A DNA stretch of 64,000 bases from a virus, in the IMG/VR virus record IMGVR_UViG_3300002092_001237, positions 32,001 to 96,000 of that record. One strand, given 5' to 3'. Position numbers and translations under genes: made by a program. The number at the start of each line of letters is the position of its first letter. Positions within the stretch are counted from its first letter, which is position 1. Below, piece after piece: positions 37,372 through 51,562 of this stretch. Below the pieces are notes generated by a model. The model had not been told where the DNA came from. It did not search any database and worked only from the letters and a program-made list of their open reading frames with translations.

Positions 37372-38616
37372 TCAATTATACGATTTTAACAGTAGCATGT
37401 CTGTGTTAATGCGTCCGTTGAGTTTAGTTTCGACGCTGTTGATGCTTTCGTAGAGTTTACGCATCTTAGTCTTAGGCAGGCTCTTAACATCACGTAAGAA
37501 CTCCTCAGGCTTGCGTACGGTCTTTGCTACGCTCTTAGCCTCATCAAAGTTAACGATAGTCGTGCCTTTGATGCTAAGTGATGCTAGATCAGTTGCTACA
37601 TAGCAGCCTAGTTTGCGTGTCTTTGAGTTGAATACCCAAAGTTCCAAACTCTGTAGAGCATCCTCTGGTTTGATACTGACTAACTTGTAGCGATCGTCGG
37701 TGGCCTTGAACTTGATCTTAGCGACCAACTTCTCTTTGCTAGGTGCCTTCTTTGCACGTACCTTACGTGCTACTTTAGCGGTCTGTAGCAGCATATCACA
37801 GGCAGCAACGACCTCAGTCAGTGCCGCTAACATATTGCGCTGTTGACCCTTAGTGTAAGTCTTATAGCCCTCGATCAACTGCTCGTCTTTGGTCTTACCT
37901 GGATTAACTAATTGGTCGTATTCTGCTTTACGTTCTGCGTAGGATTCACGGATCACACGAGCATGTGCTTGGTTCGCTTCCTTACCTTTGAAGTGTGCGA
38001 TTACGTTAAAGCCCTTAGGATCAAACTTCTCTGGATCGGTAATAAAGCCTTCTAACCAAGTATCGATATCTTCTGCGATAACATGTGCGCTAGCACGGAT
38101 ACGATCCTGGATAGTGGGCTGTACCGTTCCACTTGTACGTTTCTCGTCATTCTTTTTAGATTCGATAAGAGTTTTACCTTTAGCAACCAGTTCGCCGATC
38201 TTTTCACGCAGCCATTCTGCGTTGTCACGATCTTCGCTCTGTGTATGCTTAGTTGGCATACCACGCAACAGCATAGTAGCAAGCGAACCCATCGTGCTAG
38301 TGGTCATCCAGTCTGGGCATTCCTTAAAACTACGGATGTCTTCTTTAGCATAACCGTTTGTTTCCATCCATTTGATCACATTTGGAATCAAATCACGCGG
38401 AGCGTTATGATAGTTGTAGTAGTAGAACCCACGATGCTGTTCTTTGCGGAAACGTTCAACGCTCCACTTTTCCCAACTGTCCCATACTGGTTCTGCGCCT
38501 GTATATTTCTCATCAAGGATCATTGGTTTACGAGCAGTTGTTGGCTTCTTAACCCGCGGAGCAAGACTGATCTTGCCTGTGCCTTTTGCTTTGGATTTAG
38601 TTGCTGACTTAGCCAT
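37372..38616 (-). CDS. Conserved hypothetical early phage protein
   Basis: Start MAKSATK after AAGGAG; sigma70-like promoter upstream. Confidence 0.6.
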   Translation of the reverse strand: MAKSATKSKAKGTGKISLAPRVKKPTTARKPMILDEKYTGAEPVWDSWEKWSVERFRKEQHRGFYYYNYHNAPRDLIPNVIKWMETNGYAKEDIRSFKECPDWMTTSTMGSLATMLLRGMPTKHTQSEDRDNAEWLREKIGELVAKGKTLIESKKNDEKRTSGTVQPTIQDRIRASAHVIAEDIDTWLEGFITDPEKFDPKGFNVIAHFKGKEANQAHARVIRESYAERKAEYDQLVNPGKTKDEQLIEGYKTYTKGQQRNMLAALTEVVAACDMLLQTAKVARKVRAKKAPSKEKLVAKIKFKATDDRYKLVSIKPEDALQSLELWVFNSKTRKLGCYVATDLASLSIKGTTIVNFDEAKSVAKTVRKPEEFLRDVKSLPKTKMRKLYESINSVETKLNGRINTDMLLLKSYN

Positions 38617-38641
38617 CGTGTTCTCCTTTGTTAATATAATC

Positions 38642-38669
38642 ATTATATAGCATCTGCGGAGTTTGTCAA
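38642..38669 (-). promoter_or_regulatory. sigma70-type promoter
   Basis: TTGACA-N16-TATAAT on the minus strand upstream of the 37372-38616 gene. Similar TTGAC boxes lie near 12503, 39069, 40118, 43211, 44164 and 45661. Confidence 0.65.
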
Positions 38670-38697
38670 GTGAATTAGATGCGTGAAATTTTGAGAC

Positions 38698-38722
38698 AAA
38701 AAAGGGCGGATAAAACCGCCCT
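38698..38722 (-). terminator. Intrinsic terminator
   Basis: AGGGCGG-TTTTAT-CCGCCCT followed by a T run. Confidence 0.8.
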
Positions 38723-38732
38723 CTATTCTTGA

Positions 38733-38939
38733 TTACTTTGCCTTCTTCTTGGCTGGTGCTTTTTTAGCAGGAGCCTTCTTCTTGTGTACCTTATAAGTCT
38801 TACACTGTTCCTTGCCGTTCACTGTCTTACAGACCTGGCGAGTTGGACGGGGTTCTGGAGTTGGAACAGCAGATGGAGCAGCGAGTGCGGAACCGGCAGT
38901 AAATGCGAGTAAAGTAGCGATGAGTGCGAGTTTCTTCAT
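38733..38939 (-). CDS. Small secreted basic protein
   Basis: Signal peptide MKKLALIATLLAFTAGSALA, one Cys pair, Lys/Ala/Pro tail. Confidence 0.65.
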   Translation of the reverse strand: MKKLALIATLLAFTAGSALAAPSAVPTPEPRPTRQVCKTVNGKEQCKTYKVHKKKAPAKKAPAKKKAK

Positions 38940-38962
38940 TTTAGTCTTTCCTGTAAAAGTTG

Positions 38963-39037
38963 TGGTGGGCGGTGAGGGTTTCGAACCCCCGACCCTCTGG
39001 ATGTAAACCAGATGCTCTACCGCTGAGCTAACCGCCC
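38963..39037 (-). tRNA. tRNA-Val(UAC)
   Basis: Cloverleaf; anticodon arm TCTGG-TTTACAT-CCAGA; encoded CCA. Confidence 0.95.
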
Positions 39038-39077
39038 ATGATCTTATATTACTATATATGTTGATCGTTGTCAACAT

Positions 39078-39107
39078 AAAAAAAGCAGTAGTGTCTCCAC
39101 TACTGCT
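39078..39107 (-). terminator. Intrinsic terminator after the porin gene
   Basis: GCAGTAGTG/CACTACTGC stem followed by T7. Confidence 0.8.
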
Positions 39108-39131
39108 CTTTTATTTCAGTCTAACTTGAAA

Positions 39132-39686
39132 TTAGAACTTGTAGTTTAGACCGATTGTGACAATGTTATTGTCCTTAATCTTCGTACTATCGGACCAAGT
39201 ATTGACAAAGCGATAACGTGCATCTGCTTCCCAATTCTTAGCAATAGCGTATTTCACACCGCCACCTACGTTGTAGATGGTCTTGTTACCGTCGCGAACG
39301 CCATCACGGAAATCGTGATTCTGAACGCCAACCCCTGCTAGTGCATATGGAGTGAAACCATAGAATGCACCAAATGGGCTAACAACACCATTGGCAGTTA
39401 CGCGAGTCTGGTTCGCTGAGGAACCCTTCTTGAACTGATTATCCACTGCGATTTCTGTAGCGAATAATGGGTTCCACTTGTAGCCAACTACGCCACCCAC
39501 AGAGGATGGATTGTCAGTTACGTTGCGGTCCATCTTTACTGCACCACCGGCATTAACACCGACGTACCAGCTCTCAGGAGCAGTTACGGCAGGAGCAGCA
39601 GGTGTAGCCTTCTTTTCTGGAAGATTCGCTGCAGATGCAACGGAAGCTGTCAAGATAAGAGCGACTGCTGTGATAATATTTTTCAT
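39132..39686 (-). CDS. Outer-membrane beta-barrel protein (Omp25/RopB- or OmpA-barrel-like)
   Basis: Signal peptide, AANLP..K..PAAP linker, WYVGVNAG, PYALAGVG, C-terminal GLNYKF. Confidence 0.8.
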   Translation of the reverse strand: MKNIITAVALILTASVASAANLPEKKATPAAPAVTAPESWYVGVNAGGAVKMDRNVTDNPSSVGGVVGYKWNPLFATEIAVDNQFKKGSSANQTRVTANGVVSPFGAFYGFTPYALAGVGVQNHDFRDGVRDGNKTIYNVGGGVKYAIAKNWEADARYRFVNTWSDSTKIKDNNIVTIGLNYKF

Positions 39687-39794
39687 TGTTTTTTCCTTTT
39701 GTTTAGAATAGTAATTATACACTTAAGACTTGTTGGATTACGAGTCTTGAGTTTCGACTACCCCGTTCATTCTTTTTTACAGAACCAACGAGTA

Positions 39795-40058
39795 TTATTT
39801 AGTTGTAAGAGGCTTTGCAATAACCGGTACTAAAACAACTGGAGTTGTATTTGCTACTGGTGCAACCATTGGCTTAATAACGACTGGAGTTGTTGGTGCT
39901 GGAGGTGCAACCATTGGCTTAATAACGACTGGAGTTGTTGGTGCTGGAGGTGCAACCATTGGCTTAATAACGACTGGGGTTGGGGTCGGAGCCGATGCTG
40001 CTGATGCTGCATTAACGAACGCAAAAAGTGCAAGTGCCACTGTTGTTGTCTTAATCAT
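39795..40058 (-). CDS. Secreted Pro/Val/Thr-rich repeat protein
   Basis: Signal peptide followed by TPVVIKPMVAPPAPT repeats. Confidence 0.65.
   Translation of the reverse strand: MIKTTTVALALFAFVNAASAASAPTPTPVVIKPMVAPPAPTTPVVIKPMVAPPAPTTPVVIKPMVAPVANTTPVVLVPVIAKPLTTK
39838..39980. repeat. 45-bp tandem repeat, about 3 copies, in the secreted protein gene
   Basis: ggtgcaaccattggcttaataacgactgg recurs at 45-nt spacing. Confidence 0.85.
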
Positions 40059-40119
40059 AACTTTTTTCTCCTGTGTGTGTTAAGTTATAAGTGTATATTA
40101 TAGTCTTATTTACGCCTTG

Positions 40120-40512
40120 TCAACCTGCGTGTTCTCGATAAAGTTTAAGACTTTCCGAGTTCAATGGTAAAAAATCCGTCGGTACAGATTCAACCTTAAA
40201 TCCATGCCCTTTGATGATTTTCTCTACTGTTTCGATCATCTCGTACCAATGAATATCGCTGATCCATTCAGTATAACCCGCCCCTTCATTTAGGATCATC
40301 TTCTTATAGTGCTTTTTTACTTCTCGTTCGAGACGTTCAATTTCTCCGCCGTCTCCAACCCAACAATGCTGCCAGTTACATTTAAAGCGAGGACCCAAAG
40401 CATTTTGATAAGTTCCAAGGCGACCGTGCGCCTTGGAAAGTGTTGTGATACCTGCCTTAGTATCGACTCCACCATCGGGCGGAGACATCAGGTAGAATAA
40501 TTTTTTAGACAT
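40120..40512 (-). CDS. Putative T5orf172/GIY-YIG-like protein
   Basis: FYLM...KAGIT...RL..YQ...E..VK...TEW pattern. Confidence 0.45.
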   Translation of the reverse strand: MSKKLFYLMSPPDGGVDTKAGITTLSKAHGRLGTYQNALGPRFKCNWQHCWVGDGGEIERLEREVKKHYKKMILNEGAGYTEWISDIHWYEMIETVEKIIKGHGFKVESVPTDFLPLNSESLKLYREHAG

Positions 40513-41626
40513 TGAATCGTACCACTGGAGCAGCTACAGGTTCATTATTGATATATTTGTTATAGATCAGTAACAGCCCACTAACAACCTGTACAGGGTG
40601 ATTATCACGACCAAGTGGATGCGTAGCTGAATACATAGACTTGATGTCTTCCTGCACTTTTTCTGCGCTACCGATATTGTTACGCAGATATTGACCTAGA
40701 TCATCGTCAAATTGTGCGCTAGGCATCTGGCCAATCTGAGCATCGCACAGCGCATATAGCATAGTCATAGGTCGCATAACTTCTGCTTCGATGCTCGCCA
40801 TGGGCCAATGTTTACGATGGAAAGTCAATGCTCGGGCGAGATACACACCTTTCATACCCATTTTATTTTGAAGTTCATAACATTCCCACAGTGCTTCAAA
40901 ATGCGTCACATCACCGGCTGTTCTCTTATAACGGTAAGGTTGGCAGTTATTAGCCTTAAGAATATTAAAGATAGATACGGTATCAACATCTTTAGTTTCC
41001 AAAAGAATCATAAATTCATCATACCCACCAACAGGACGCTTAAAGGTTTTATTAATTCGAATAAAACTACGACCTGCGAGCCCAATCATTGCTTCTTCGG
41101 CTTCGTCAAGTTCAGTCAAAGAAAGGTCATCAACGTCTGTATACCAAACAGGGATATGTGTCCAACCCCGGCGAATCAACAACTGTGATGTATGACCGCC
41201 GTCCCATAGACAAAAATGAACAACGCCATTAAGGTCTACAAATTTAACAGCACAGGGAACGATAATCATTCTGCTGTCAAAATTGGCTTCGATATTCTTA
41301 ATATGATTTGGAGCAACATCTCGCTGGAACCGAGGATCATAAAAACACTGTGACAATTCGACCCAAGCAAATTTAGGAATCTTTTTTAGTCCACGTGGAT
41401 CAATAGTTTGACGATTAATCAACGGATTACCAATAACAGCCTCAATACCATCGGCGATATCTAAGATAGGGATTCTTTTTCCAGGATAGTTATTAACCAT
41501 TTCACGGAGGTCGATCGCTTTATTCTCAACGTCAAATGGGATTTTAAATTTACCCAACCAGTTGCGGATTCGTTGCTTAGTCGGAATAACAGTAGTCGCG
41601 GTAATAGTAGTAAGTGACATTTTCAT
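40505..41626 (-). CDS. ParB/Srx-like (DUF6551/DGQH-type) protein
   Basis: DPRFQRDV...I..NFD...WDGGHT motif order. Confidence 0.55.
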   Translation of the reverse strand: MKMSLTTITATTVIPTKQRIRNWLGKFKIPFDVENKAIDLREMVNNYPGKRIPILDIADGIEAVIGNPLINRQTIDPRGLKKIPKFAWVELSQCFYDPRFQRDVAPNHIKNIEANFDSRMIIVPCAVKFVDLNGVVHFCLWDGGHTSQLLIRRGWTHIPVWYTDVDDLSLTELDEAEEAMIGLAGRSFIRINKTFKRPVGGYDEFMILLETKDVDTVSIFNILKANNCQPYRYKRTAGDVTHFEALWECYELQNKMGMKGVYLARALTFHRKHWPMASIEAEVMRPMTMLYALCDAQIGQMPSAQFDDDLGQYLRNNIGSAEKVQEDIKSMYSATHPLGRDNHPVQVVSGLLLIYNKYINNEPVAAPVVRFNV

Positions 41627-41744
41627 TTTATATCTCCAGTTTGCTAGATCTAATCTAGACTTTAAGGTTAACTCTTTAGTTTGTTAACTTTAAATACTAT
41701 ATGATATAATTTGATGTTAGTCAACCTGTATTTTAAAGGGTAAA

Positions 41745-41819
41745 TGGAGCGGGAGAAGGGATTCGAACCCTCGACATCAACCTTGGCAAGGTTGCGCTCT
41801 ACCCCTGAGCTACTCCCGC
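41745..41819 (-). tRNA. tRNA-Gly(GCC)
   Basis: Cloverleaf, CAACC-TTGCCAA-GGTTG, ends TCCA. Confidence 0.95.
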
Positions 41820-41831
41820 ATCCTTTATTTA

Positions 41832-41906
41832 TGGCTGAGGAACTAGGACTCGAACCTAGATTGACGGAGTCAAAGTCCGCTCTCCTACCGATTAGAGGAT
41901 TCCTCA
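41832..41906 (-). tRNA. tRNA-Gln(UUG)
   Basis: GCGGA-CTTTGAC-TCCGT, U1-A72, ends GCCA. Confidence 0.93.
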
Positions 41907-41910
41907 ACAA

Positions 41911-42107
41911 TGGCGGCCCGATATTGACACGTTTTGGATGAGCAGGCTCGGGCCAACACCTCCTCCGTAGATAGGTACTGTCTGAAACCTATCCAGTTTG
42001 TGCTAGCTAGGCTAGCGCAATGTGTGGAAAGATAGACTCCACACGGTCTTCTATACAGGTCCCTGCTTGCCCCTATATAGACTGACGGTATTTTTTGCAG
42101 GACCGCC
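41911..42107 (-). ncRNA. Candidate structured ncRNA (~197 nt) ending in CCA
   Basis: Four hairpins, a possible pseudoknot and a GGCCCGA/TCGGGCC-G-CCA end; lies between tRNA-Lys and tRNA-Gln. Confidence 0.6.
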
Positions 42108-42112
42108 AAACT

Positions 42113-42186
42113 TGGTGAACCTACCGAGATTCGAACTCGGATCAACGGATTAAAAGTCCGCTGCTCTACCATTGAGCTATGGGTCC
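42113..42186 (-). tRNA. tRNA-Lys(UUU)
   Basis: GCGGA-CTTTTAA-TCCGT; one acceptor-stem mismatch; encoded CCA. Confidence 0.9.
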
Positions 42187-42215
42187 TAAGACCCATAACA
42201 CACAGGTCTTTGTTG

Positions 42216-42719
42216 TTAATCGTGTCGCGGCATAGTGGCCGCTTCTTTTACGATTTCAATTACTTCATCTAACGAAGAACAGATAATTTTAGTTGTAATC
42301 CAATTATCATCTTCGCTACGTCCACCTACTTCTACCATATATCCATTGTCATACATGTTGATAGTAAATGACTCGTTAACCTTATGTAGTTTATCTGAGA
42401 TCTTTGTAGTCATAACACTTTTCCTTTGTTTTAAGTTGTGGTATCGAACGATATATCCGTCATGTAAATTTTCTTCATTACGAACAAGCCAGTTACTTGT
42501 TACATTACTTTGAAGAATACCATATTTGGTGACAGATTGTTTTAGTTGTTTACCATTATCTGTTGTATTAGCTAACGGAATATGTATTTGTCCACTACCC
42601 TCTAATCTCGATAAGACATCATGTAAGATTGGTTTAAAAAACTCAAAACTAACAGTATCTTTTGTAGATTCTGGGGTATCAGTACCATATGCTTCTTGCC
42701 AAGTTTTTGTCTTAGTCAT
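42216..42719 (-). CDS. Hypothetical protein (possible internal start at MTTKISDK)
   Basis: GAGG RBS at the 5' start and AAGGA before the internal ATG. Confidence 0.5.
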   Translation of the reverse strand: MTKTKTWQEAYGTDTPESTKDTVSFEFFKPILHDVLSRLEGSGQIHIPLANTTDNGKQLKQSVTKYGILQSNVTSNWLVRNEENLHDGYIVRYHNLKQRKSVMTTKISDKLHKVNESFTINMYDNGYMVEVGGRSEDDNWITTKIICSSLDEVIEIVKEAATMPRHD

Positions 42720-42728
42720 GTTTTCCTC

Positions 42729-42998
42729 TTATAGTGTTACGTGGTCTACTACTTCGTCTCGGTAGATTACGATCTTAGCAGTAGTATGCTCTCTTACGAA
42801 ATCTTTAATACGAGCATCAATATAAAGATCTAGGTGCTCTCTCATCTTATTCTTAGATGGATCGTATCGGCTTTCTTTAATACTATCTCGTCTATTAACA
42901 CTACCGCGTTGTTCGGCTTCCCAGGCATCGTCGGCAGCATCCATCATTTCTTCTAGTTCATCACAAAACGCATTCCAGTGTTTGTCTTGCTCGCTCAT
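42729..42998 (-). CDS. Hypothetical protein
   Basis: GAGG RBS; 89 aa. Confidence 0.5.
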   Translation of the reverse strand: MSEQDKHWNAFCDELEEMMDAADDAWEAEQRGSVNRRDSIKESRYDPSKNKMREHLDLYIDARIKDFVREHTTAKIVIYRDEVVDHVTL

Positions 42999-43014
42999 CG
43001 TTTCCTCATATAGT

Positions 43015-43089
43015 TGGCTGGAGTGGCAGGATTCGAACCTGCGACCAAGTGATTAACAGTCACCTGCGCTACCGCTGCGCCACACTCCA
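43015..43089 (-). tRNA. tRNA-Asn(GUU)
   Basis: GGTGA-CTGTTAA-TCACT, ends GCCA. Confidence 0.95.
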
Positions 43090-43095
43090 ACATTT

Positions 43096-43171
43096 TGGTG
43101 CCCCAGGAGAGATTCGAACTCCCACCACCTGGTACCTAAAACCAGTGTCTCTACCATTGGACTACTGGGGC
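43096..43171 (-). tRNA. tRNA-Leu(UAG), short variable loop
   Basis: CTGGT-TTTAGGT-ACCAG; 5-nt variable loop; A73. Confidence 0.9.
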
Positions 43172-43223
43172 AATCTTAATGTTCCTTATATTAACAGCAT
43201 TTACTTATTGTGTCAACCTTTTA

Positions 43224-43832
43224 TTACCAGCCCCACCATTTCGTTAGATACTGTGGTCGATTTGCTCGCAACCACGGGAGTGCATCGTTATTTAATTTGT
43301 TGTAATCAACACCTACAGTCTGTGATCCAACGTGATGTACATATGCTCGTGATATAAAGTTTTTAAATCCCTGTTCGTTTAGATCTTCGCAGATCACATC
43401 ATCTGAATACCAATTTAATGGTCCGAACTGTGCAACATCAAACGCTTTCTTTGAGATCCAAGCAAATAAAGGTGATACAACACTAGCTTCTAAACATTGG
43501 CTTCCGTCGTTATGTTTAATATGTTGTGAATCACGGACGAAATCGGCTCTAGTTGCGACTATGCCTACGTTATCCCTATACTGCTGTTTTAACTGTTCAA
43601 CGTCTTCCATGAGTATTCTCATAGTGTCTGGGCGTAACACAATATCATCATTTGCAACGATCATTTCATCACAGGTTTCAAATACTTCACTCATTGCAGC
43701 ATTGTATACTTCACCAAACGTAGCAGGGGCAGGACGAAATATGTTTAAAGTTGCTTCGGGAGCATAGTGTTTAACACTAGCTTCCATCATTGGTAAGCAG
43801 GGCGATCCTGCTGTGCATACTACGATATTCAT
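43224..43832 (-). CDS. Family 2-like glycosyltransferase
   Basis: FG..YN.A...NDDI...WYSDD...YVHHVGSQT motifs. Confidence 0.75.
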   Translation of the reverse strand: MNIVVCTAGSPCLPMMEASVKHYAPEATLNIFRPAPATFGEVYNAAMSEVFETCDEMIVANDDIVLRPDTMRILMEDVEQLKQQYRDNVGIVATRADFVRDSQHIKHNDGSQCLEASVVSPLFAWISKKAFDVAQFGPLNWYSDDVICEDLNEQGFKNFISRAYVHHVGSQTVGVDYNKLNNDALPWLRANRPQYLTKWWGW

Positions 43833-43852
43833 TTTAACCTTTCTTATATTGT

Positions 43853-43929
43853 TGGAGCATCCGGAGGGATTCGAACCCCCGACCGTCGCGTTCGAAGCGC
43901 GAAGCTCTAATCCACTGAGCTACGGATGC
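43853..43929 (-). tRNA. tRNA-Arg(UCG)
   Basis: TCGCG-CTTCGAA-CGCGA; encoded CCA. Confidence 0.92.
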
Positions 43930-43939
43930 GTTGCCTGTC

Positions 43940-44035
43940 TCGGCTACTATTGTAATACTCGGCTGTAGGTGACTAACCCACAATATCTCACCCCGTTAAG
44001 GGGAGCCACCGATTGCTATTAACAATAGTAGCCGA
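43940..44035 (-). ncRNA. Candidate structured ncRNA (~96 nt)
   Basis: Perfect 14-bp terminal stem enclosing two hairpins. Confidence 0.55.
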
Positions 44036-44039
44036 TCTA

Positions 44040-44125
44040 TGGTGGGGCGTCCTGGTAACGATCCAGGCCAGTGCTTAGACGCTGGATTTACAGTCCAGAC
44101 CCCGTCCTTAGAGGTATACCGCCCC
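44040..44125 (-). tRNA. tRNA-Tyr(GUA), atypical T-loop
   Basis: CTGGA-CTGTAAA-TCCAG, long variable arm, T-loop ATCGTTA. Confidence 0.88.
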
Positions 44126-44219
44126 TTAACTCTTATTTTAACTATAATACCGTTGGCCTATTTTGTCAACTATTATAATAGTAGCAGATAATTAATATTA
44201 ATCCAAAAGGAGATATAAG

Positions 44220-44579
44220 ATGGATATTATTAATCAGATCCACGGCAGCAGTTTTGCTCTTGCTGTGATTGTTACAAGCGTAGTATGGTATATTGCTTTT
44301 AAAATTTATGCATGGTGGCTTAAGAAAGAACTAAAAGAACAGATGCATAGCGATCTTCCTCTAAGTATGGAAGACATTGAGCATAGCCGTAATTTAGAAA
44401 GAGCAGTGCATGATGTAGAACTACGTCGTCGTGATCTAAAGATCGCAGAACAAAAGCTCGCAGTAGCCGAAGCTGATGCTAAGGTAGAAAGTAGCTTATC
44501 TCGTATCGACGAACTTAATCATGAGATTGAAGTTGTTAAGATCGACAAAGCAGCTAAGAAAGCTATCACTAAAATCTAA
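44220..44579 (+). CDS. Membrane-anchored coiled-coil protein
   Basis: AAGGAG RBS, N-terminal TM segment. Confidence 0.6.
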   Translation: MDIINQIHGSSFALAVIVTSVVWYIAFKIYAWWLKKELKEQMHSDLPLSMEDIEHSRNLERAVHDVELRRRDLKIAEQKLAVAEADAKVESSLSRIDELNHEIEVVKIDKAAKKAITKI

Positions 44580-44656
44580 TGGTGATCTCGGCATGACTCG
44601 AACATGCGACCCACGGTTTAGGAAACCGTTGCTCTGTCCAGCTGAGCTACGAGACC
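44580..44656 (-). tRNA. tRNA-Arg(CCU)
   Basis: ACGGT-TTCCTAA-ACCGT; encoded CCA. Confidence 0.93.
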
Positions 44657-44666
44657 GATAAAAAAG

Positions 44667-44813
44667 TTGAGAGGGACGAGTGTCGACCCTCTTTTCAATA
44701 TCCGGGTTCCCAAGGTTAAAAGAAATTCCCCTTAGGGACTCTTACCCGACCTCGATGTGGTTGGTTCACTATGTGAACGATCAACTCATCCGTGCTACTA
44801 TACTGCCTCTCAA
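44667..44813 (-). ncRNA. Candidate structured ncRNA (~147 nt)
   Basis: TTGAGAGG/CCTCTCAA terminal stem, internal hairpins, T-arm-like 3' part. Confidence 0.55.
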
Positions 44814-44817
44814 AACT

Positions 44818-44907
44818 TGGCAGAAAGGGTGGGATTCGAACCCACGGAACGCTCTCACGTTCGTCAGTTTTCAAGACTGAAGGCATCAACCGCTCGCCCA
44901 CCTTTCC
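44818..44907 (-). tRNA. tRNA-Ser(UGA)
   Basis: TCAGT-CTTGAAA-ACTGA; long variable arm; G73. Confidence 0.93.
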
Positions 44908-44912
44908 AAACT

Positions 44913-44989
44913 TGGCGACCTGTAGGGGTAACGATCCCCTCATCTCTAGCGTGACAGGCTAGCGTCTTCACCATGCCGACTCACAGGCC
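44913..44989 (-). tRNA. tRNA-Asp(GUC), atypical
   Basis: CTAGC-CTGTCAC-GCTAG; G at position 8; T-loop ATCGTTA. Confidence 0.9.
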
Positions 44990-44998
44990 AATATTCTC

Positions 44999-45110
44999 TA
45001 GATGCGTAGGCGCTCGAATCCCTCACCAGCGGACGCTTTGGACCTGTCCACCCCGGAGCCACCCAACGGGCTGGGCACCATTACCCCATTAAGGCTCGAT
45101 AACGCATCTA
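44999..45110 (-). ncRNA. Candidate structured ncRNA (~112 nt)
   Basis: TAGATGCGT/ACGCATCTA terminal stem with GC-rich internal hairpins. Confidence 0.55.
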
Positions 45111-45114
45111 ATCT

Positions 45115-45191
<77 letters not shown>

Positions 45192-45197
45192 ATAAAC

Positions 45198-45614
45198 TTA
45201 CTTTAAAGACTTACTAATTTCTTCGTAAGCCCTTACTGTAGGGGGATGGATTTTATCCTTACCTACTTTATCACTTATATCCATAACGTAATCGCCGAAT
45301 TCGCTAGAGATTTTCTGTACTAGATCATACTGTTTTGTTTTTACTTCCTTGCTAGGAAGGATCCAAATAACACGACCTTCTTTGATCAGTTTGCGTGTTT
45401 TAAGCATCCAATCATAACTTTTCTCATTTTGGTCGTTGCTGCCTAAGCTGATAACAACATACTTGTAAGTTTCCATATCAAACAGCGGACGATTGTGATT
45501 TTTCTTATACCAGTCTGCACTGTTGATACCAATTTCAGTCATTCGAACACAATCAGGCTTTACACTTGCGATGCCCGAAGCGATACTATCACCGATGATT
45601 AAACATTCTAGCAT
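45198..45614 (-). CDS. SGNH/GDSL hydrolase-like protein
   Basis: IIGDSIA, ISLGSND and DKIHP motifs. Confidence 0.8.
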   Translation of the reverse strand: MLECLIIGDSIASGIASVKPDCVRMTEIGINSADWYKKNHNRPLFDMETYKYVVISLGSNDQNEKSYDWMLKTRKLIKEGRVIWILPSKEVKTKQYDLVQKISSEFGDYVMDISDKVGKDKIHPPTVRAYEEISKSLK

Positions 45615-45682
45615 ATGTTCTCCTAACTGTTAAACTTAGTATATAATATGCTAGCATTTCTGTCAACCTGATAAATATTGCT

Positions 45683-46069
45683 ATGAAAAGAATAATAGCG
45701 GTACTAGCACTATTAACACTCTCGGCTTGTAACTCCATCGACGTTAGTACTGTCGTCCCAAGTTTCTGGGACGACAATCAAAGCCGTAGCATCATAAACA
45801 CTTACCAATTAGCAGTAAACGTAGATTGTAAAGAACCACAAGCAGCACAAGCACAAGCGATTGTTCGTGAACTACAGTGGTTCCAACTTTATAGCGAAAG
45901 CAAAGGTATGCTACAGAAAGACGTCCTCAAACTGATTGAGCCTATGCAGACCACTTCTAAAGAATGGGCAGACAGAGAAGCACCTAGTGAGGGCTACTGT
46001 AAGATAAAGAAGAACATAATGATCACGCAGGCTAAAGCAGCATCATCAGCCGTATTAGGGAGATTCTAA
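45683..46069 (+). CDS. Lipoprotein
   Basis: Lipobox LSAC; GATAAATA at 45670-45677. Confidence 0.7.
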   Translation: MKRIIAVLALLTLSACNSIDVSTVVPSFWDDNQSRSIINTYQLAVNVDCKEPQAAQAQAIVRELQWFQLYSESKGMLQKDVLKLIEPMQTTSKEWADREAPSEGYCKIKKNIMITQAKAASSAVLGRF

Positions 46070-46299
46070 TGACTAAACTAAATGAACTCGTAGGTTGTGG
46101 CCACGGATGGGCCGAAGAACGTGCTCAGATGGCAATGGATATAATCGAGCAACGTAATAGCGGTGCTATTACACCCAGTGAGGCTAAAGAATTGCTCGAA
46201 GACCTAGTTGCTACTGATAAACTAGAAGCAGTAGCAGACAATATACAAGTTAAAGCAGCATTGATCAGTGCGATCTCTATCGCTGCTAAGTTTGCTTAA
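46069..46299 (+). CDS. Hypothetical protein
   Basis: TAATG coupling to the lipoprotein gene. Confidence 0.55.
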   Translation: MTKLNELVGCGHGWAEERAQMAMDIIEQRNSGAITPSEAKELLEDLVATDKLEAVADNIQVKAALISAISIAAKFA

Positions 46300-46300
46300 T

Positions 46301-46377
46301 TGGTGCGTCTGATTGGACTCGAACCAACAACGCCTAGCACCTCAAGCTAGTGTCTCTACCAATTGGACTACAGACGC
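46301..46377 (-). tRNA. tRNA-Leu(GAG), short variable loop
   Basis: CTAGC-TTGAGGT-GCTAG; 5-nt variable loop; A73. Confidence 0.9.
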
Positions 46378-46381
46378 ATAT

Positions 46382-46456
46382 TGGAGGTCAGGATGGGAAT
46401 CGAACCCACATAAAACAGTTTTGCAGACTGTCCCATAACCGTTCTGGCACCTGACC
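46382..46456 (-). tRNA. tRNA-Cys(GCA)
   Basis: ACAGT-CTGCAAA-ACTGT; U73. Confidence 0.93.
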
Positions 46457-46462
46457 ATAACT

Positions 46463-46538
46463 TGGTACCCGCTGTTGGTTTCGATCCAACTCTTTCAGTT
46501 CCACAAACTGACGTGCTAGCCACTAACACTAAGCAGGC
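46463..46538 (-). tRNA. tRNA-His(GUG), alphaproteobacterial type (no G-1)
   Basis: TCAGT-TTGTGGA-ACTGA; C at -1, G1-U72, A73. Confidence 0.9.
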
Positions 46539-46545
46539 GTAAACT

Positions 46546-46622
46546 TGGTTGGCCCTGCTGGACTTGAACCAGCGACCTTTCGGTTATCAGCCGAATGCTC
46601 TCGCCATCTGAGCTAAGGGCCA
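46546..46622 (-). tRNA. tRNA-Ile(GAU)
   Basis: TTCGG-CTGATAA-CCGAA; encoded CCA. Confidence 0.93.
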
Positions 46623-46632
46623 TAAATACCCC

Positions 46633-47238
46633 ATGACCGAAAAACAAACAATATTAGCGATGTATTCGGGAGGATTAGATAGTTTATATATGGTATATAA
46701 ACTTTTAACTTCGGATGAATATTCAGATAAACGTGTACATATACATCATGTACACATTCATAATGTAGAAGATCGTTTTAAAGCAGAAGCATTGATGGTT
46801 AATGCTGCGTTAACAGAATTAAAACAACGCGGCTTTACCTTTATCTATAGTGAAAGCAAAATCTCTAGTCCGGCATTTCGAAAAAATAACAAAGTGTCAT
46901 ATATATACGATTGGGACATTGTAAGATTTTATGCCGGTTGGATAGCCAGCGTAAATCCAGATATTAGTGCTATTGCCATTGGGCGTGAGCAGTCTGACGC
47001 TGGTGGATTTAACCAATATGATTCAGCCGATGCGTTAGTAAAATACTTTACAGACATTCCTTTGATATATCCAGTGTTAGACATGCACAAATACGAAATG
47101 TATGACAAATTACCAGACTGGTTAAAAGATAAATTCTGGAGTTGTCGTACGCCTATCTATCAAAATAATATTCCCACTAAATGTGGTTTTTGTGGTACTT
47201 GTAAAAAATTATTAAAATACAACATCGGTGGATCATAA
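46633..47238 (+). CDS. QueC-like PP-loop ATPase (7-cyano-7-deazaguanine synthase-like)
   Basis: SGGLDS PP-loop and WSC-x11-CGFCGTC zinc site. Confidence 0.75.
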   Translation: MTEKQTILAMYSGGLDSLYMVYKLLTSDEYSDKRVHIHHVHIHNVEDRFKAEALMVNAALTELKQRGFTFIYSESKISSPAFRKNNKVSYIYDWDIVRFYAGWIASVNPDISAIAIGREQSDAGGFNQYDSADALVKYFTDIPLIYPVLDMHKYEMYDKLPDWLKDKFWSCRTPIYQNNIPTKCGFCGTCKKLLKYNIGGS

Positions 47239-47245
47239 ATAATCT

Positions 47246-47563
47246 GTGACAAGTTACATTTACATTATAGGTAGTGATAAGCCTCCTTATAAAGTAGGCA
47301 TTAGCAAAAACCCACAGCGTAGATTACGTGATCTCCAAACTGGACATCCTTATCCTCTCGCCATACATTCTATAATTGAAACTCCAACTTCTAATAATAA
47401 ACTATTAGAAAGCATCATTCATCGTAATCTAAAGCATCTACGCACGAGCGGAGAATGGTTTGATATACCTTTAGAAGTACTTAAATTAGAAGTTGATTTT
47501 GTTATGATACGCTACAGCGAAGATTCTACGCTTAAAACGAGAATAACTCAGAATATATTGTAG
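47246..47563 (+). CDS. T5orf172 (GIY-YIG-like) domain protein
   Basis: YIYII...KVGISKNP..RL..LQTG...E..IH...GEWF. Confidence 0.8.
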   Translation: MTSYIYIIGSDKPPYKVGISKNPQRRLRDLQTGHPYPLAIHSIIETPTSNNKLLESIIHRNLKHLRTSGEWFDIPLEVLKLEVDFVMIRYSEDSTLKTRITQNIL

Positions 47564-47566
47564 TGG

Positions 47567-47642
47567 TGGTGCCCAATGACGTATTCGAAACGCCGACCTA
47601 CTGATTACTAATCAGTTGCTCTGCCAGCTGAGCTAATTGGGC
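47567..47642 (-). tRNA. tRNA-Thr(AGU)
   Basis: ACTGA-TTAGTAA-TCAGT; A34 anticodon; encoded CCA. Confidence 0.9.
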
Positions 47643-47684
47643 TCTATTTTACTTATATCGTATATTTCTATATGACGTCGAATC

Positions 47685-47758
47685 TGGCACCCTGTCTAGG
47701 AGTCAAACCTAGGCCCTCAGTTTTGGAGACTGATGTGCTATCGTAACACTTACAGGAT
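47685..47758 (-). tRNA. tRNA-Trp(CCA)
   Basis: TCAGT-CTCCAAA-ACTGA; D-loop GA with T-loop TTTGACT. Confidence 0.88.
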
Positions 47759-47760
47759 AT

Positions 47761-47838
47761 TGGTCTGCGTGGCTGGATTCGAACCAGCGGTCCCCTGACT
47801 CCAAATCAGGTATGTTAACCAGACTACACCACACACAG
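47761..47838 (-). tRNA. tRNA-Pro(UGG)
   Basis: CCTGA-TTTGGAG-TCAGG; C1-G72, A73. Confidence 0.9.
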
Positions 47839-47845
47839 TTAAATT

Positions 47846-47922
47846 TGGTCCGCCCTACGGGTGTCGATCCCGTTACTCTACCTTGAAAGGGTAGTGATAT
47901 AGCCAGCGTTATCTAAGGGCGG
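47846..47922 (-). tRNA. tRNA-Glu(UUC)
   Basis: CTACC-CTTTCAA-GGTAG; T-loop ATCGACA. Confidence 0.88.
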
Positions 47923-47925
47923 CTA

Positions 47926-48030
47926 ATTGTCTCTGCAAGGATACACTTGGTAAAACCGATTCCACATATTACCGTTCACTAGTCATCGGTCGACATAACT
48001 AGAAGGAAAGTGTATCCATGGAGAAACAAT
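47926..48030 (-). ncRNA. Candidate three-way-junction ncRNA with kissing loops (~105 nt)
   Basis: GGATACACTT/AAGTGTATCC core stem; two hairpins carrying ACCGA and TCGGT. Confidence 0.55.
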
Positions 48031-48126
48031 GTCTCCTGCTCCGCTGAAACCACTTGTACAGCCATTTGGCCCACGTACTAGTCGGAGGTTGTGCTTATGC
48101 TTAGGGCACAACTGCCTGCGTATAAG

Positions 48127-48291
48127 TTAAACAGCGTGTACGTCTGTACTCTGTTTGTTTAACTTAGATTCTTTCTTTGCCTTTTTCTTTGCCTTTTTTT
48201 GTTCTACAATATCGTATATTTTTTGTTCTGTTTCGCGATCACCATTCTGGATAGCGTGAAATAATTTGGTTGCTAGTTCTGTCCATTTCAT
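48127..48291 (-). CDS. Small basic protein (54 aa), first gene after the attenuator
   Basis: Manual translation MKWTELATKLFHAIQNGDRETEQKIYDIVEQKKAKKKAKKESKLNKQSTDVHAV; GGGAG RBS. Confidence 0.6.
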   Translation of the reverse strand: MKWTELATKLFHAIQNGDRETEQKIYDIVEQKKAKKKAKKESKLNKQSTDVHAV

Positions 48292-48317
48292 TTCGTTTCT
48301 CCCTATATTCAGACAAC

Positions 48318-48349
48318 AAAAAACCCCGGTGACAATATGTTCCGGGGTT
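48318..48349 (-). terminator. Attenuator terminator
   Basis: CCCCGG-N12-CCGGGG followed by T6; its 5' arm can instead pair with GGGGTTC in the leader ORF. Confidence 0.8.
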
Positions 48350-48373
48350 CCATGTGTATATGTGAATTACATA

Positions 48374-48454
48374 TTACAGCACAAGAACCCCCCTAGTCGG
48401 TTCCGACCAGCGATTAGATTTACTAAATGAACAAATAGTCATAGTGTTTCTCAT
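48374..48454 (-). CDS. Leader peptide of a predicted transcription attenuator (MRNTMTICSFSKSNRWSEPTRGVLVL)
   Basis: 26-codon ORF between the promoter and the terminator; carries the antiterminator strand at its 3' end. Confidence 0.65.
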   Translation of the reverse strand: MRNTMTICSFSKSNRWSEPTRGVLVL

Positions 48455-48461
48455 TGTCTTT

Positions 48462-48492
48462 TATTTATACAATCTAATTAAGGGCTTGTCAA
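48462..48492 (-). promoter_or_regulatory. Promoter of the tRNA array (TTGACA-N17-TATAAATA)
   Basis: Perfect -35 hexamer 17 nt upstream of a TATAAATA box that is also a T4-type late consensus. Confidence 0.7.
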
Positions 48493-48498
48493 GTCTGA

Positions 48499-49140
48499 TT
48501 ATGAATTTTCTACAGGTGCAGTTAAAACTCGATCTAATTTCTTGCTTAGGTAATTTAGCAATACGCCATACACTGGCAGGATAACTAAAAGACTAACTAT
48601 TAACTTAGTTCCAGTTTGGTTCATAGCGATAATGTGCCAATTCTCTGCCATATACGCATTTGCTGATTCATAGAACGCCACACCGAAGAAAGTGAAAGTG
48701 TCCAACACATTAGCAAATACTGCTGCAAGTGCCGGAGCAGCAAACCACATTGCAAAACGTTCACGTACCTTTTGGAATACGAAAACATCTAGCAAGCTAG
48801 AAACCAAATATGCACATCCACTCGCTACACCTATACGTAGTGCTACGCTTTCCGGTGCGCCGCCTGCTAGCACAACCAAGATACTGGCGATAACAGCAGG
48901 AATAAATGCTATATTAATAACTGCCCGAGCATTCTCTTTATTGATAAGCCGGATAGTCAAATCAGTAGCAACAACTACTAGTGGAAATGTAAATGCTGCC
49001 CAAGTTAGTTTAATACCCCAGATATCAAATTTGATAGTCACGAGGTAGTTAGATAGTGCAATAATGAAAGTATGGAACAATACTAATTTTGCGATTAGCA
49101 TTTTATCCATTCCGTCTAAACTAAAATATTTCTTTATCAT
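48499..49140 (-). CDS. yhhQ: preQ0/preQ1 transporter (YhhQ/VUT family)
   Basis: IIALSNYLV...TW.AFTFP...ATDLT.R...RI..AS..AY...LDV.VF...DT..FF..AFY. Confidence 0.88.
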   Translation of the reverse strand: MIKKYFSLDGMDKMLIAKLVLFHTFIIALSNYLVTIKFDIWGIKLTWAAFTFPLVVVATDLTIRLINKENARAVINIAFIPAVIASILVVLAGGAPESVALRIGVASGCAYLVSSLLDVFVFQKVRERFAMWFAAPALAAVFANVLDTFTFFGVAFYESANAYMAENWHIIAMNQTGTKLIVSLLVILPVYGVLLNYLSKKLDRVLTAPVENS

Positions 49141-49174
49141 TGTAATCCTTCTGTTAATAAATTGGCGGTGAGTG

Positions 49175-49265
49175 TGGCGGTGGGACAGGGATTCGAACCC
49201 TGGGTACTCTTGTGAAGTACAACGGTTTAGCAAACCGGCCCTTTCGGCCTCTCAGGCACCCCACC
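49175..49265 (-). tRNA. tRNA-Ser(GCU)
   Basis: CGGT-TTGCTAA-ACCG; long variable arm; G73. Confidence 0.92.
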
Positions 49266-49287
49266 ATAAACACTCTTCCTATAATAA

Positions 49288-49361
49288 TGGAGCGGAGTAG
49301 GAGAATCGAACTCCTCGCTTTAGCTTGGAAGGCTAAGGTATTACCACTATACGAACTCCGC
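49288..49361 (-). tRNA. tRNA-Gly(UCC)
   Basis: TTAGC-CTTCCAA-GCTAA; U73. Confidence 0.93.
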
Positions 49362-49380
49362 GTTCTTATTATTACTTATA

Positions 49381-49680
49381 TTAACATTCTTTCTCAGAGT
49401 TGTCAATCTCTTTTAACAGATCTTTTAAGTTTTGTTCCTGAAAAGTTTCCCAAAGTGGATCTGGGTCATATTTACAGTGATAGTATACGTCATCATCGTC
49501 CTCACCCCATACATGTACGATCGGACCATCTGGGTCCTCAGTCACAAACACAGTATGGAAAAAAAGACTGCTTGGATTCTTTTCTAGATCTTCGTGTAGA
49601 CGTACGAGATCCTGTAGAACTATATGTTCCAGTTCTAATACATTATCGGGTATTTCTTCATGCCATTTCAATTTTATCAT
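49381..49680 (-). CDS. Acidic hypothetical protein
   Basis: Probable start MIKLKW at 49680. Confidence 0.45.
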   Translation of the reverse strand: MIKLKWHEEIPDNVLELEHIVLQDLVRLHEDLEKNPSSLFFHTVFVTEDPDGPIVHVWGEDDDDVYYHCKYDPDPLWETFQEQNLKDLLKEIDNSEKEC

Positions 49681-49743
49681 GTTTTTAATCCCATAGATTT
49701 TTTTACGTAAAATATAAATATATAGTAGCAAAGAAAGATAGAG

Positions 49744-50436
49744 TTGTCAATGCCTTATACATATTTAGTGGGTTGGTCTACGCATAATAAATTTTATTAC
49801 GGTGCTCGTTGGGCTAAAGATTGTTCGCCCGATACTTTATGGACATCATATTTTACTTCTTCTAAACATGTTAAAGCATTTCGTAAGTTGTATGGTGAAC
49901 CAGATATTATACAAATTCGTAAAATTTTTAATGATATTAATGAATGTCGTATTCACGAACGTAAAGTTCTTGAGAGATTAAACGTGTTAAAAGATGATAA
50001 ATGGTTAAACAAAAACATAAATGGTTTATTTCTCCCAACAGGTCCGCAAACAGAAGAACATATCGCTAAAAGAGTTTGTCAAAGTATTGAAACAATGCGA
50101 CGAAATGAGACGTTACATAAACCAACATATAACTCTAAAACACATCCCGAAGTAGGAAAAAAAATTTCTAAATCATTAACAGGGAAACCTAAATCACTCA
50201 ACCATATTGCTAATATGAGATTTCGTCCGCAAGATGTAAATTATATTACTTGCCCTTATTGTTCTAAAACAGGTGATTATAAAAATATGAAAAGATGGCA
50301 TATGGATAATTGTAAAAACAACCCCAATGTGTCAGATAATATTATCTGTAAAAATGTTGTCTGTAATAGATGCGGATATGTTGCTAAACAATCACCCAAT
50401 TTTTTTCGTTATCATAATAAAAATTGTAAAATCTAA
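49744..50436 (+). CDS. Free-standing GIY-YIG (Seg-like) homing endonuclease
   Basis: YTYL...KFYYG.R...YFTSSK...E..VL...WLN, NUMOD-like KISKSLTGKPKS and CPYC zinc ribbons; antisense and AT-rich. Confidence 0.75.
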   Translation: MSMPYTYLVGWSTHNKFYYGARWAKDCSPDTLWTSYFTSSKHVKAFRKLYGEPDIIQIRKIFNDINECRIHERKVLERLNVLKDDKWLNKNINGLFLPTGPQTEEHIAKRVCQSIETMRRNETLHKPTYNSKTHPEVGKKISKSLTGKPKSLNHIANMRFRPQDVNYITCPYCSKTGDYKNMKRWHMDNCKNNPNVSDNIICKNVVCNRCGYVAKQSPNFFRYHNKNCKI

Positions 50437-50960
50437 TCCCAGAGATTAAGATAGAACTTACCAAAAAGATCCAGACCTTCCTGTATTTTTTCGTAATACG
50501 CAGTATAGCCTTTTTGATCAAATGTAGCAGTATGCCCTGCCCCGGGTACCATTTGTTGTCCGCCCTTGACCGGTTTAAAAGTAAAGTTGCTAACACCGTG
50601 ATGGAATTGATCATCTCGATCTTCTAAACAGATCTGTTCAAAACTCCAAATCATCTTGTCCATCGCGTCTTCCCATTGATTATGCCCAAGTTCCCATGCC
50701 TTGTTGTCGTCATCCTTATAAAACTCAAAAGTCATTTGAGGCCAATGATTATTTGTCTCATCTTTGAACGCTGGCATATTACTAGGACTACCATGCTTCG
50801 CTGCTCTTAACTGTTTAAGCATTGGTAGTATGATGTCGCCGAGAGTTTCGGCCATATTCCAAGTGTCTTGCCTGTCGATCCTGATAGACTTTTTTTGTTT
50901 AGCATCAGGATCACGACGTAGAGTGCGATCACTTGGAAAACGGCCGATGTATATTTTCAC
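50433..50960 (-). CDS. Conserved hypothetical phage protein
   Basis: DTWNM..TL..II.PMLKQL...HG.P...EGL.LFGK.Y..LWD pattern. Confidence 0.6.
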
Positions 50961-51562
50961 TCTACAGCATCCTCACGCTTATCGATAACACGATCCGCTA
51001 GACCGTATGCTACGGCTTCTTGTGCGCTCATAAAGAAATCACGTTCTAAATCAGCAGCGATGGTTTCGTAAGTCTTACCTGCTGAATTATGCTTAACATA
51101 AATCTCAGTGAGGTATTCTTTCATCTTCTGTATTTCACGTGCTTGGATCTGGATATCTGTCGCTTGCCCACTAGCACCGCCGCTAGGTTGATGGATCATA
51201 TGACGAGCATATGGGAGGATCATACGTTTACCTTTAGCACCAGCAGTAGCAAGTAGACTACCCATGCTACAGGCTTGCCCCATAACGATAGTATTAACGT
51301 CTGGTTTAATAAACTGCATAGTGTCGTAGATGGCCATACCGGCTGTGACAACACCTCCCGGGCTGTTAATGTACAAATAGATGTCTTTAGATGGATTCTG
51401 GCTTTCAAGGAATAACAACTGTGCTACAATTAAGCTAGAACTGTTCTCATTGACTTGTGTGTCAAGCATAATGATTCGATCTTTAAGCAAGCGACTGTAG
51501 ATATCATAACTACGTTCGCCACCGCTTTCTTTTTCGATTACTATTGGTACTAAATTAGGCAT
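50957..51562 (-). CDS. clpP: ATP-dependent Clp protease proteolytic subunit
   Basis: [25 protein letters not shown] (catalytic Ser), MIHQP and ERD motifs. Confidence 0.95.

Follow-up and report, generated by a model that had tools for sequence, protein, structure and literature searches.

The 64,000-nucleotide (nt) stretch of viral DNA analyzed here, referred to as the window, spans positions 32,001 to 96,000 of IMG/VR record IMGVR_UViG_3300002092_001237 and carries on its minus strand, between positions 48492 and 48318, a short element that is likely to be a ribosome-operated transcription attenuator heading a block of phage tRNA genes. The element consists of a sigma70-type promoter, a short leader open reading frame (ORF), a hairpin that would act as an antiterminator (hairpin 2) and an intrinsic terminator that shares bases with this hairpin. 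An earlier note, made from the letters of the window alone, had proposed a leader-ORF attenuator ahead of the tRNA genes, and the proposal is upheld by related loci: across approximately 47 variants the ORF remains in frame, both RNA structures are kept and the element always lies ahead of tRNA genes on the same strand. The whole record is 107.7 kb long with an estimated completeness of 25%, which points to a jumbo phage as its source, and the element is present in it as a single copy.

In the proposed mechanism, host RNA polymerase would start at the sigma70-type promoter and make a short leader mRNA. If no ribosome follows closely, a G-run in this RNA (region 2) would pair with a C-run (region 3) to form hairpin 2, which would arise before the terminator, be more stable than it and therefore block it. 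Read-through would then extend transcription into a 54-amino-acid ORF, a conserved candidate non-coding RNA and the genes for tRNA-Glu, tRNA-Pro, tRNA-Trp and tRNA-Thr. A ribosome that promptly reaches the stop codon, which is part of the hairpin 2 5' arm and precedes region 3 (the terminator 5' arm) by 25 nt, would melt or cover region 2, leaving region 3 to pair with region 4, and transcription would stop at the U-tract. Slow decoding within approximately the first 17 codons, or poor initiation, would increase tRNA transcription, providing feedback from translation speed to tRNA supply. The presumed direction of the switch, with fast translation leading to termination and slow or absent translation leading to read-through, follows from the predicted folding order, energies and geometry. 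Its physiological signal is likewise deduced from sequence features, as is the presumption that the short variant present in the window still works. On this reading, slow ribosomes probably lead the phage to raise its tRNA output.

Promoter, leader ORF and hairpins in the window

Transcription of the element would begin at a promoter whose -35 box, TTGACA (48487 to 48492, minus strand), is separated by a 17-nt spacer from the -10 region TATAAATA (48462 to 48469, minus strand), which contains the hexamer TATAAA; both are direct readings. The -35 box is invariant in 10 of 10 variants of the short form of the element, to which the window belongs, and TATAAATA with the 9-10 bases that follow it is almost invariant across the same set. 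A TTGAC[AG] box is also present in 35 of 35 variants of a longer form. Within the window, TATAAATA is observed 3 times against 8.6 expected, which shows that the phage does not use it as a general motif. A T4-type late promoter was considered for this motif and rejected because it shows no enrichment in the window and a conserved -35 box lies 17 nt away. The leader promoter is absent from the output of a simple promoter scan because the scan's rule requires T at the last -10 position, whereas this box reads TATAAA.

The leader ORF (48374 to 48454, minus strand) has 26 codons and opens with an ATG at 48454, 7 nt past the -10 box. Another ATG in the same frame is at 48442, and the stop is the TAA at 48376-48374. 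The ORF lacks a strong Shine-Dalgarno sequence, and its mRNA may be leaderless or nearly so. Folds of the RNA place a 7-base-pair hairpin with a GAAC loop inside the ORF (hairpin 1; 48393 to 48410, minus strand). This hairpin, which was absent from the earlier description, contains a conserved UGG codon and may serve as a pause or structural hairpin.

Hairpin 2 (48344 to 48391, minus strand) contains the stop codon of the ORF in its 5' arm and pairs GGGGUUCU with GGAACCCC at its base, where GGGGUUC (48391-48385) is complementary to GAACCCC (48350-48344). The intrinsic terminator (48318 to 48349, minus strand), identified by direct reading and by folding, is formed by a AACCCCGG/CCGGGGUU stem with a 12-nt loop. 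Its core pairs CCCCGG (48347-48342) with CCGGGG (48329-48324) between flanking A-U pairs and is followed by U6 (48323-48318). The six bases at 48349-48344 are common to the 3' arm of hairpin 2 and the 5' arm of the terminator. The long hairpin is part of the minimum free energy (MFE) fold of the 146-nt leader, which has -46.8 kcal/mol (z = -4.0), and the terminator folded alone gives -19.1 kcal/mol (z = -3.0). When the two structures are compared sequence by sequence, the window has a free energy (dG) of -19.5 for hairpin 2 versus -15.9 kcal/mol for the terminator. The minus strand of the window contains 3 strict terminators, too few to yield a background rate of competing upstream hairpins.

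Most of these features had been described in the earlier note. The promoter TTGACA-N17-TATAAATA is read at 48492-48487 and 48469-48462, the 26-codon ORF begins 7 nt after the box, the CCCCGG/CCGGGG-U6 terminator is in place with a stable fold, and the pairing of GGGGUUC with GAACCCC, along with its extension through UGUG/CACA and AUAUGU/ACAUAU, is confirmed in the sequence. The long hairpin expected from folding the leader is likewise recovered.

Short and long forms of the element in related phages

Related loci were fetched by means of the neighboring ClpP-like gene and then searched with DNA patterns and a covariance model. These searches yielded 14 copies of the short form, comprising 10 distinct sequences in four groups, and when 5 short forms were used to build a covariance model, it recovered the 14 copies at E <= 1e-22. 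The version present in the window is identical in three other metagenome contigs. All 10 distinct short forms keep the promoter, an ORF of 24-28 codons, both hairpins and the terminator, the sequence of which (CCGGGGTTTTTT) is invariant. The genes are arranged in the order tRNA-Gly(TCC), tRNA-Ser(GCT), element, usually a 51-54-amino-acid ORF approximately 20 nt past the U-tract, and then the tRNA block.

Other search strategies were less productive. The upstream YhhQ-like protein used as a query for related loci returned no relatives, BLAST with tRNA-Glu was too insensitive to find them, and blastn against cultured phages produced no match for the window element or for a long-form element. An exact 17-mer from the promoter region, TATAAATAAAAGACAAT, is present at 81 loci in IMG/VR, of which only 4 contigs are genuine; the remainder have no relation to the element, and many of them carry the same box immediately ahead of a Shine-Dalgarno sequence and ATG. 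In one group of these unrelated contigs (L082, L084, L088 and approximately 25 more loci) the 17-mer immediately precedes AAAGGAG and the ATG that opens a conserved gene, and there it resembles a T4-type late promoter.

A short-form covariance model (R1), when applied to the records of 50 relatives, found only the 4 copies already known and none in three near-complete relatives, because the model is too specific to detect the long form. The latter was found by inspecting the sequence upstream of tRNA arrays in the near-complete relatives and in locus L002. A 16-mer from its terminator then matched 48 IMG/VR loci that represent 35 distinct variants, with L002 and L256 as additional members. In the long form, a sigma70-type promoter is followed by an ORF of 37-53 codons, which contains a G-run close to its end, and by a terminator. 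The G-run, GGGGUCC or GGGGUGU, pairs with GGACCCC or ACACCCC, and the terminator uses the same C-run. In the sequences of the terminator and of regions 2 and 3, L010 and L256 provide a gradual transition between the short and long forms, and in every long-form locus with enough sequence there are tRNAs on the same strand within 180-1150 nt downstream. The conservation that the earlier note had asked for is seen in relatives, where the arrangement of ORF, antiterminator and terminator recurs upstream of tRNA arrays with compensatory changes.

The layout also occurs in the cultured Agrobacterium phage Atu_ph07, which by its ClpP protein is the second-nearest named phage after Sinorhizobium phage Phosso. 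Its leader ORF is gp469, which has 42 codons and is annotated as a hypothetical protein (L311:7319-7447; NC_042013.1 339118-339246). A TTGATT-N17-TATAAA promoter, a Shine-Dalgarno sequence, the ORF and a terminator follow one another ahead of the main tRNA array. Within the gp469 ORF, CCGGUUCCG is complementary to CGGAACCGG in the terminator arm, with the stop codon 29 nt before this arm and the tRNAs approximately 190 nt further on.

Competition between hairpin 2 and the terminator

Judged by sequence and predicted folds, hairpin 2 and the terminator are mutually exclusive, as the earlier note had held. The overlap between antiterminator and terminator is kept in 10 of 10 short and 35 of 35 long variants, with compensatory changes. 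Among the short forms, dG is -19.5 to -23.3 for hairpin 2 and -14 to -19.6 for the terminator, and the overlap measures 5-9 nt. The base of hairpin 2 reads UUC:GAA, UCU:AGA or a bulged UU:AA in different short-form groups, and the compensatory pairs found at this position in relatives are UUC:GAA, UCU:AGA, UGU:ACA and UCC:GGA. A pair count on the short-form alignment gives only 47.5% pairing for this base helix, a value that results from a 2-column register shift, so per-sequence folds were used instead. The helix of hairpin 1 is 92.5% paired over the 10 short variants, with 2 pairs changed on both sides.

The long forms were folded as the RNA that exists before the 3' arm of the terminator is made, and in 35 of 35 such truncated folds the terminator C-run pairs with the upstream G-run. 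Their median dG is -22.7 for hairpin 2 versus -18.2 for the terminator, and the full-length MFE structures contain the terminator in 20 cases and the antiterminator in 15. The interior of hairpin 2 is represented by 33 distinct sequences in the long forms and is more stable than its shuffles in 33 of 35 (median z -3.3). RNAalifold applied to a MAFFT alignment of the long forms recovers only the terminator, since the variable interior of hairpin 2 is misaligned. The position of the stop codon is also held nearly constant: it falls within the competing hairpin and is separated from region 3 by 25-31 nt in 33 of 35 long forms and by 25-28 nt in short forms.

Translation of the leader and selection on its composition

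Selection on the reading frame indicates that the leader ORF is translated. Over 37 variants there are 0 stop codons in the ORF frame, versus 110 and 120 in the other two frames. Among the short forms, the ORF frame is open from the start of the transcript to the stop codon in the 5' arm of hairpin 2, and the other frames contain 1-6 stops. In a nucleotide alignment made blind to the frame, the distance from ATG to a conserved TGG is 51, 63, 66, 69 or 75 nt, a multiple of 3 in 29 of 29 cases, and that from TGG to GATCG is 18, 24, 27, 30 or 33 nt, a multiple of 3 in 26 of 26. Deletions that break the frame are accompanied by new start codons. Group C of the short forms combines a 10-nt deletion with a start codon moved by 2 nt, and in the window a 17-nt deletion has removed the Shine-Dalgarno sequence and GTG start and an ATG has been gained further upstream; in both, the frame to the same stop is restored.

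These results bear on the idea that the element switches through RNA alone, as a riboswitch, a T-box-like tRNA sensor or a protein-binding leader would. A ligand would then choose between hairpin 2 and the terminator, and the ORF would be incidental. The RNA structure is strongly conserved, third codon positions included, and a site upstream of tRNA genes invites the notion of tRNA sensing. Frame conservation and stop avoidance cannot be incidental, however, and neither restored start codons nor the selected completeness in amino acids described below would be expected of such a switch. Searches with cmscan, covering 38000-51000 of the window at E <= 1 and four related loci at E <= 0.1, returned only tRNAs and weak unrelated matches, and the element matches no Trp, His, Leu or Thr leader, T-box, riboswitch or other family in Rfam. 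An RNA-only switch is accordingly regarded as very improbable.

The sequence of the leader peptide is, by comparative measures, not under selection. Entropy is flat across the three codon positions of the leader (1.24/1.24/1.31), and the ratio of nonsynonymous to synonymous changes (pN/pS) is approximately 0.87, whereas the small ORF downstream at the same loci has coding-type entropy (1.14/0.91/1.34). The leader residues that do seem conserved, namely W, D-R and T-P-E, retain the same codons, which places their conservation at the RNA level.

The amino-acid composition of the relatives' leaders is, by comparison with shuffled ORFs, selected. All 20 amino acids are present in 29 of 38 long leaders, with a mean of 19.6 distinct residues versus 17.4 in stop-free shuffles, in which the chance for one leader to reach all 20 is approximately 2-7%. 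Rare residues shift position and are not lost: a single-copy Cys is spread over 12 alignment columns among the leaders, and the corresponding numbers for His, Phe and Tyr are 10, 9 and 8. Long leaders contain 19.7 residue types on average, of which 18.8 precede the position at which a stalled ribosome would start to cover region 2. In their 24-28 codons the short forms include 15-19 residue types, on average 17 versus a null expectation of 14.4. Taken together, the frame, composition and flat-entropy results indicate that translation and the presence of each amino acid matter and that the peptide sequence does not. The earlier note had viewed the leader as a general sensor and not one for a single amino acid. 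This view gains support from the selection for all 20 amino acids in relatives but not from the window's own leader, which has 15 (P = 0.43). Its further suggestion that the W-S-E-P-T codons of the leader match the first four downstream tRNAs fails when matching is scored, with a value of 0.231 versus 0.221 for permuted pairings (P = 0.07).

Conservation beyond the switch itself could also reflect a second role of the attenuator, in which the terminated leader RNA or peptide acts in trans and this action is the main reason for conservation. Such activity is described for rnTrpL and peTrpL, the products of the Sinorhizobium trp attenuator (PMC7968998). In the phage element, the conserved nucleotide blocks and the structured 5' domain of the long forms exceed what a switch needs, and third codon positions are conserved as much as the others. 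The short form in the window nevertheless lacks most of the 5' domain while retaining the switch, the peptide sequence is not conserved and there is no known candidate target. A dominant role in trans is thus considered quite improbable, and it would in any case be compatible with the attenuator reading.

Genes downstream of the terminator

The first gene past the terminator (48127 to 48303, minus strand) consists of the ribosome-binding site GGGAG (48303-48299) and a 54-amino-acid ORF with its ATG at 48291, and begins 26 nt after the U-tract. In L057, L010 and L143 an equivalent ORF follows the U-tract at a distance of approximately 20 nt, and a conserved ORF of 51-58 amino acids lies 10-14 nt after it in 11 long-form variants. 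Spacings of 10-26 nt leave no room for a promoter, which implies that these ORFs need read-through, and the simple promoter scan finds no sigma70-like promoter between the terminator and tRNA-Glu in the window. The 51-58-amino-acid ORF of the long-form loci (L281:648-812, L309:4886-5047, L308:928-1101 and others) clearly represents a conserved protein family with normal coding periodicity. Searches of Pfam and PHROGs with the leader peptides and the downstream small ORFs yielded nothing significant.

A non-coding spacer of approximately 200 nt (47923 to 48126, minus strand), conserved in sequence with L143 and L057, separates the 54-amino-acid ORF from tRNA-Glu. It includes a GC-richer block with several hairpins and no Rfam match (window 47990-48120, minus strand; L143:7450-7540; L057:12018-12105), which may correspond to a stable small RNA transcribed together with the tRNAs. 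The first tRNA block (47567 to 47922, minus strand), annotated by ARAGORN and Rfam, encodes Glu(UUC), Pro(UGG), Trp(CCA) and Thr(AGU).

A simpler account would treat the element as a stand-alone small gene, encoding a micro-protein or small RNA, with its own promoter and a leaky ordinary terminator. Hairpin 2 would then only stabilize the transcript, and the downstream genes would be expressed through constitutive leak or from other promoters. Promoter and terminator do enclose a unit of 140-220 nt, a sigma70-like promoter comes straight after the terminator in L012, L258 and L274, and several tRNA blocks of the window have promoters of their own. Against this, the peptide lacks the codon-position signature of a selected protein that the neighboring ORF has, and a stabilizing hairpin need not overlap the terminator arm in approximately 47 variants nor fix the stop codon at 25-31 nt. 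The closely spaced small ORFs just described are also left without room for a promoter, and such a product would give no reason for the leaders to be selected for all 20 amino acids. A stand-alone gene is for these reasons judged improbable. In L012 (18063-18102) a TTGACA-N17-TATATT promoter abuts tRNA-Glu in place of the small ORF, and L010 retains a degenerate copy of this promoter.

Several observations weigh against the attenuator reading itself. The leader in the window is the most reduced member of the set, having no Shine-Dalgarno sequence and using only 15 of the 20 amino acids, with A, D, H, Q and Y missing. Its diversity does not exceed that of shuffled ORFs (P = 0.43), whereas the other short forms have 16-19 residue types. 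A protector pairing between region 1 and region 2 does not occur in any fold, and hairpin 1 (48410-48393) is self-contained; untranslated RNA would consequently read through, unlike in the trp and his systems. The distance from region 2 to the stop codon downstream of it is 20-22 nt in many long forms, which puts region 2 at the trailing edge of a terminating ribosome, so that masking of region 2 by this ribosome is plausible but not certain. The long forms also hold additional conserved 5' structure that the simple model does not need; in Atu_ph07 this structure pairs the Shine-Dalgarno region with a UUGG block. Finally, a promoter lies directly behind the terminator in some loci (L012, L258, L257 and L274) and later tRNA blocks of the window carry their own promoters, which means that the switch would govern at most part of the tRNA output. 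Two caveats raised in the earlier note apply here, since stalls after approximately codon 17 would indeed cover region 2 and the later tRNA blocks do have promoters of the form TTGACA-N17-TAnnnT.

Genomic setting

DNA of the window recurs in metagenome DNA contigs from lakes and fresh water obtained in many studies. Promoters of the form TTGACA-N16-18-TAnnnT are found 16 times in the window versus 3.2 expected, a five-fold excess, and almost all are on the minus strand. They are located ahead of most tRNA blocks (minus strand; 38669, 39074, 40123, 43216, 44169, 45666, 49406, 49750 and others), which suggests that transcription of the array is divided among several units.

A YhhQ-like gene (48499-49140, minus strand) is located just upstream of the leader promoter. 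The tRNA region also includes, on the plus strand, a QueC-like gene and two homing-endonuclease-like genes (46633-47563 and 49744-50436). The ClpP-like gene (50957-51562, minus strand) is labeled as a head maturation protease by PHROGs and as ClpP in the annotations of cultured relatives, and shares 68-70% identity with its counterparts in Atu_ph07 and Phosso. Farther away, a DnaK homologue (59071-61011, minus strand) is approximately 68% identical to DnaK-annotated sequences in the records of Pseudomonas and Acinetobacter phages.

Relation to known systems and significance

Leader-peptide attenuators are well known from the amino-acid operons of enterobacteria, with trpL, hisL, leuL, thrL, pheL and the multivalent ilvGMEDA leader as examples. 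The phage element shares with them a promoter-proximal short ORF, an intrinsic terminator before the regulated genes and an antiterminator that uses bases of the terminator. As in those systems, the position of the leading ribosome would pick the structure, and the stop codon is placed such that a terminating ribosome would disrupt the antiterminator. Unlike them, the element precedes tRNA genes, a small ORF and a candidate non-coding RNA and not biosynthetic enzymes, it has no run of codons for a single amino acid (the relatives' leaders carry all 20) and no protector hairpin, and it has neither sequence nor Rfam similarity to them. The trp/his architecture put forward in the earlier note consequently stands with respect to the promoter-proximal ORF, terminator and exclusive antiterminator, and does not extend to the region 1:region 2 protector or the codon run.

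Attenuation also controls antibiotic-resistance genes, as in the erm leaders and the ARE-ABCF genes vmlR and lmo0919, in which drug-stalled ribosomes act at particular peptide motifs. These attenuators resemble the phage element in having a short leader ORF and alternative hairpins, in that a slowed ribosome switches on the downstream gene, and in serving as general sensors of translation inhibition. The phage leader differs in that it lacks a conserved peptide motif and would have tRNA as its output.

In logic, the closest systems appear to be the upstream ORF (uORF) attenuator of mycobacterial whiB7 and the trn array of Anabaena. Stalling on the whiB7 uORF is believed to cause antitermination, many depletions of amino acids, tRNAs or synthetases activate it, its composition sets what is sensed and its sequence varies between species (PMC10274678). 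The phage element likewise has a variable ORF sequence, and the same stalling logic and composition-determined sensing are proposed for it. The two are not homologous, however, and the whiB7 uORF is enriched in alanine and controls a drug-resistance transcription factor, whereas the phage leader is balanced and would control viral tRNA genes. In the Anabaena trn L-array, extra tRNA genes are kept low and are induced when translation is impaired, through the protein repressor TrcR at the promoter (PMC8421152, PMC10272220). Translational stress leading to more tRNA is the regulatory logic of both, but the text of the paper on this repressor mentions no attenuator or leader peptide, whereas here a translated leader and a terminator would act in cis.

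Full-text literature searches for an attenuator ahead of phage tRNA genes returned no published description, and the element is widespread and apparently unpublished. The broader proposal is that it belongs to a widespread viral class of ‘decoding gauge’, in which a leader containing every amino acid allows any tRNA shortage or cleavage, slow charging or ribosome shortage to increase transcription of phage tRNAs. This generalization is evenly poised between holding and failing, and a link to host anticodon nucleases would be speculation. Because the same layout is present in cultured Atu_ph07 (gp469), the idea can be tested directly at the bench.

Large phages carry tens of tRNA genes, and both the reasons for this and the time at which the genes are used are debated; the reasons put forward include codon supply, loss of host tRNAs and escape from tRNA-cutting defenses. 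If the proposed mechanism is true, a cis-acting gauge would allow phages to regulate their tRNA supply by feedback, and leader-peptide attenuation would be extended from amino-acid and resistance genes to tRNA genes. The leader would represent a natural sensor of translation that covers all amino acids. Such a device would provide homeostatic control of translation capacity, and it could also answer host defenses that destroy tRNAs.

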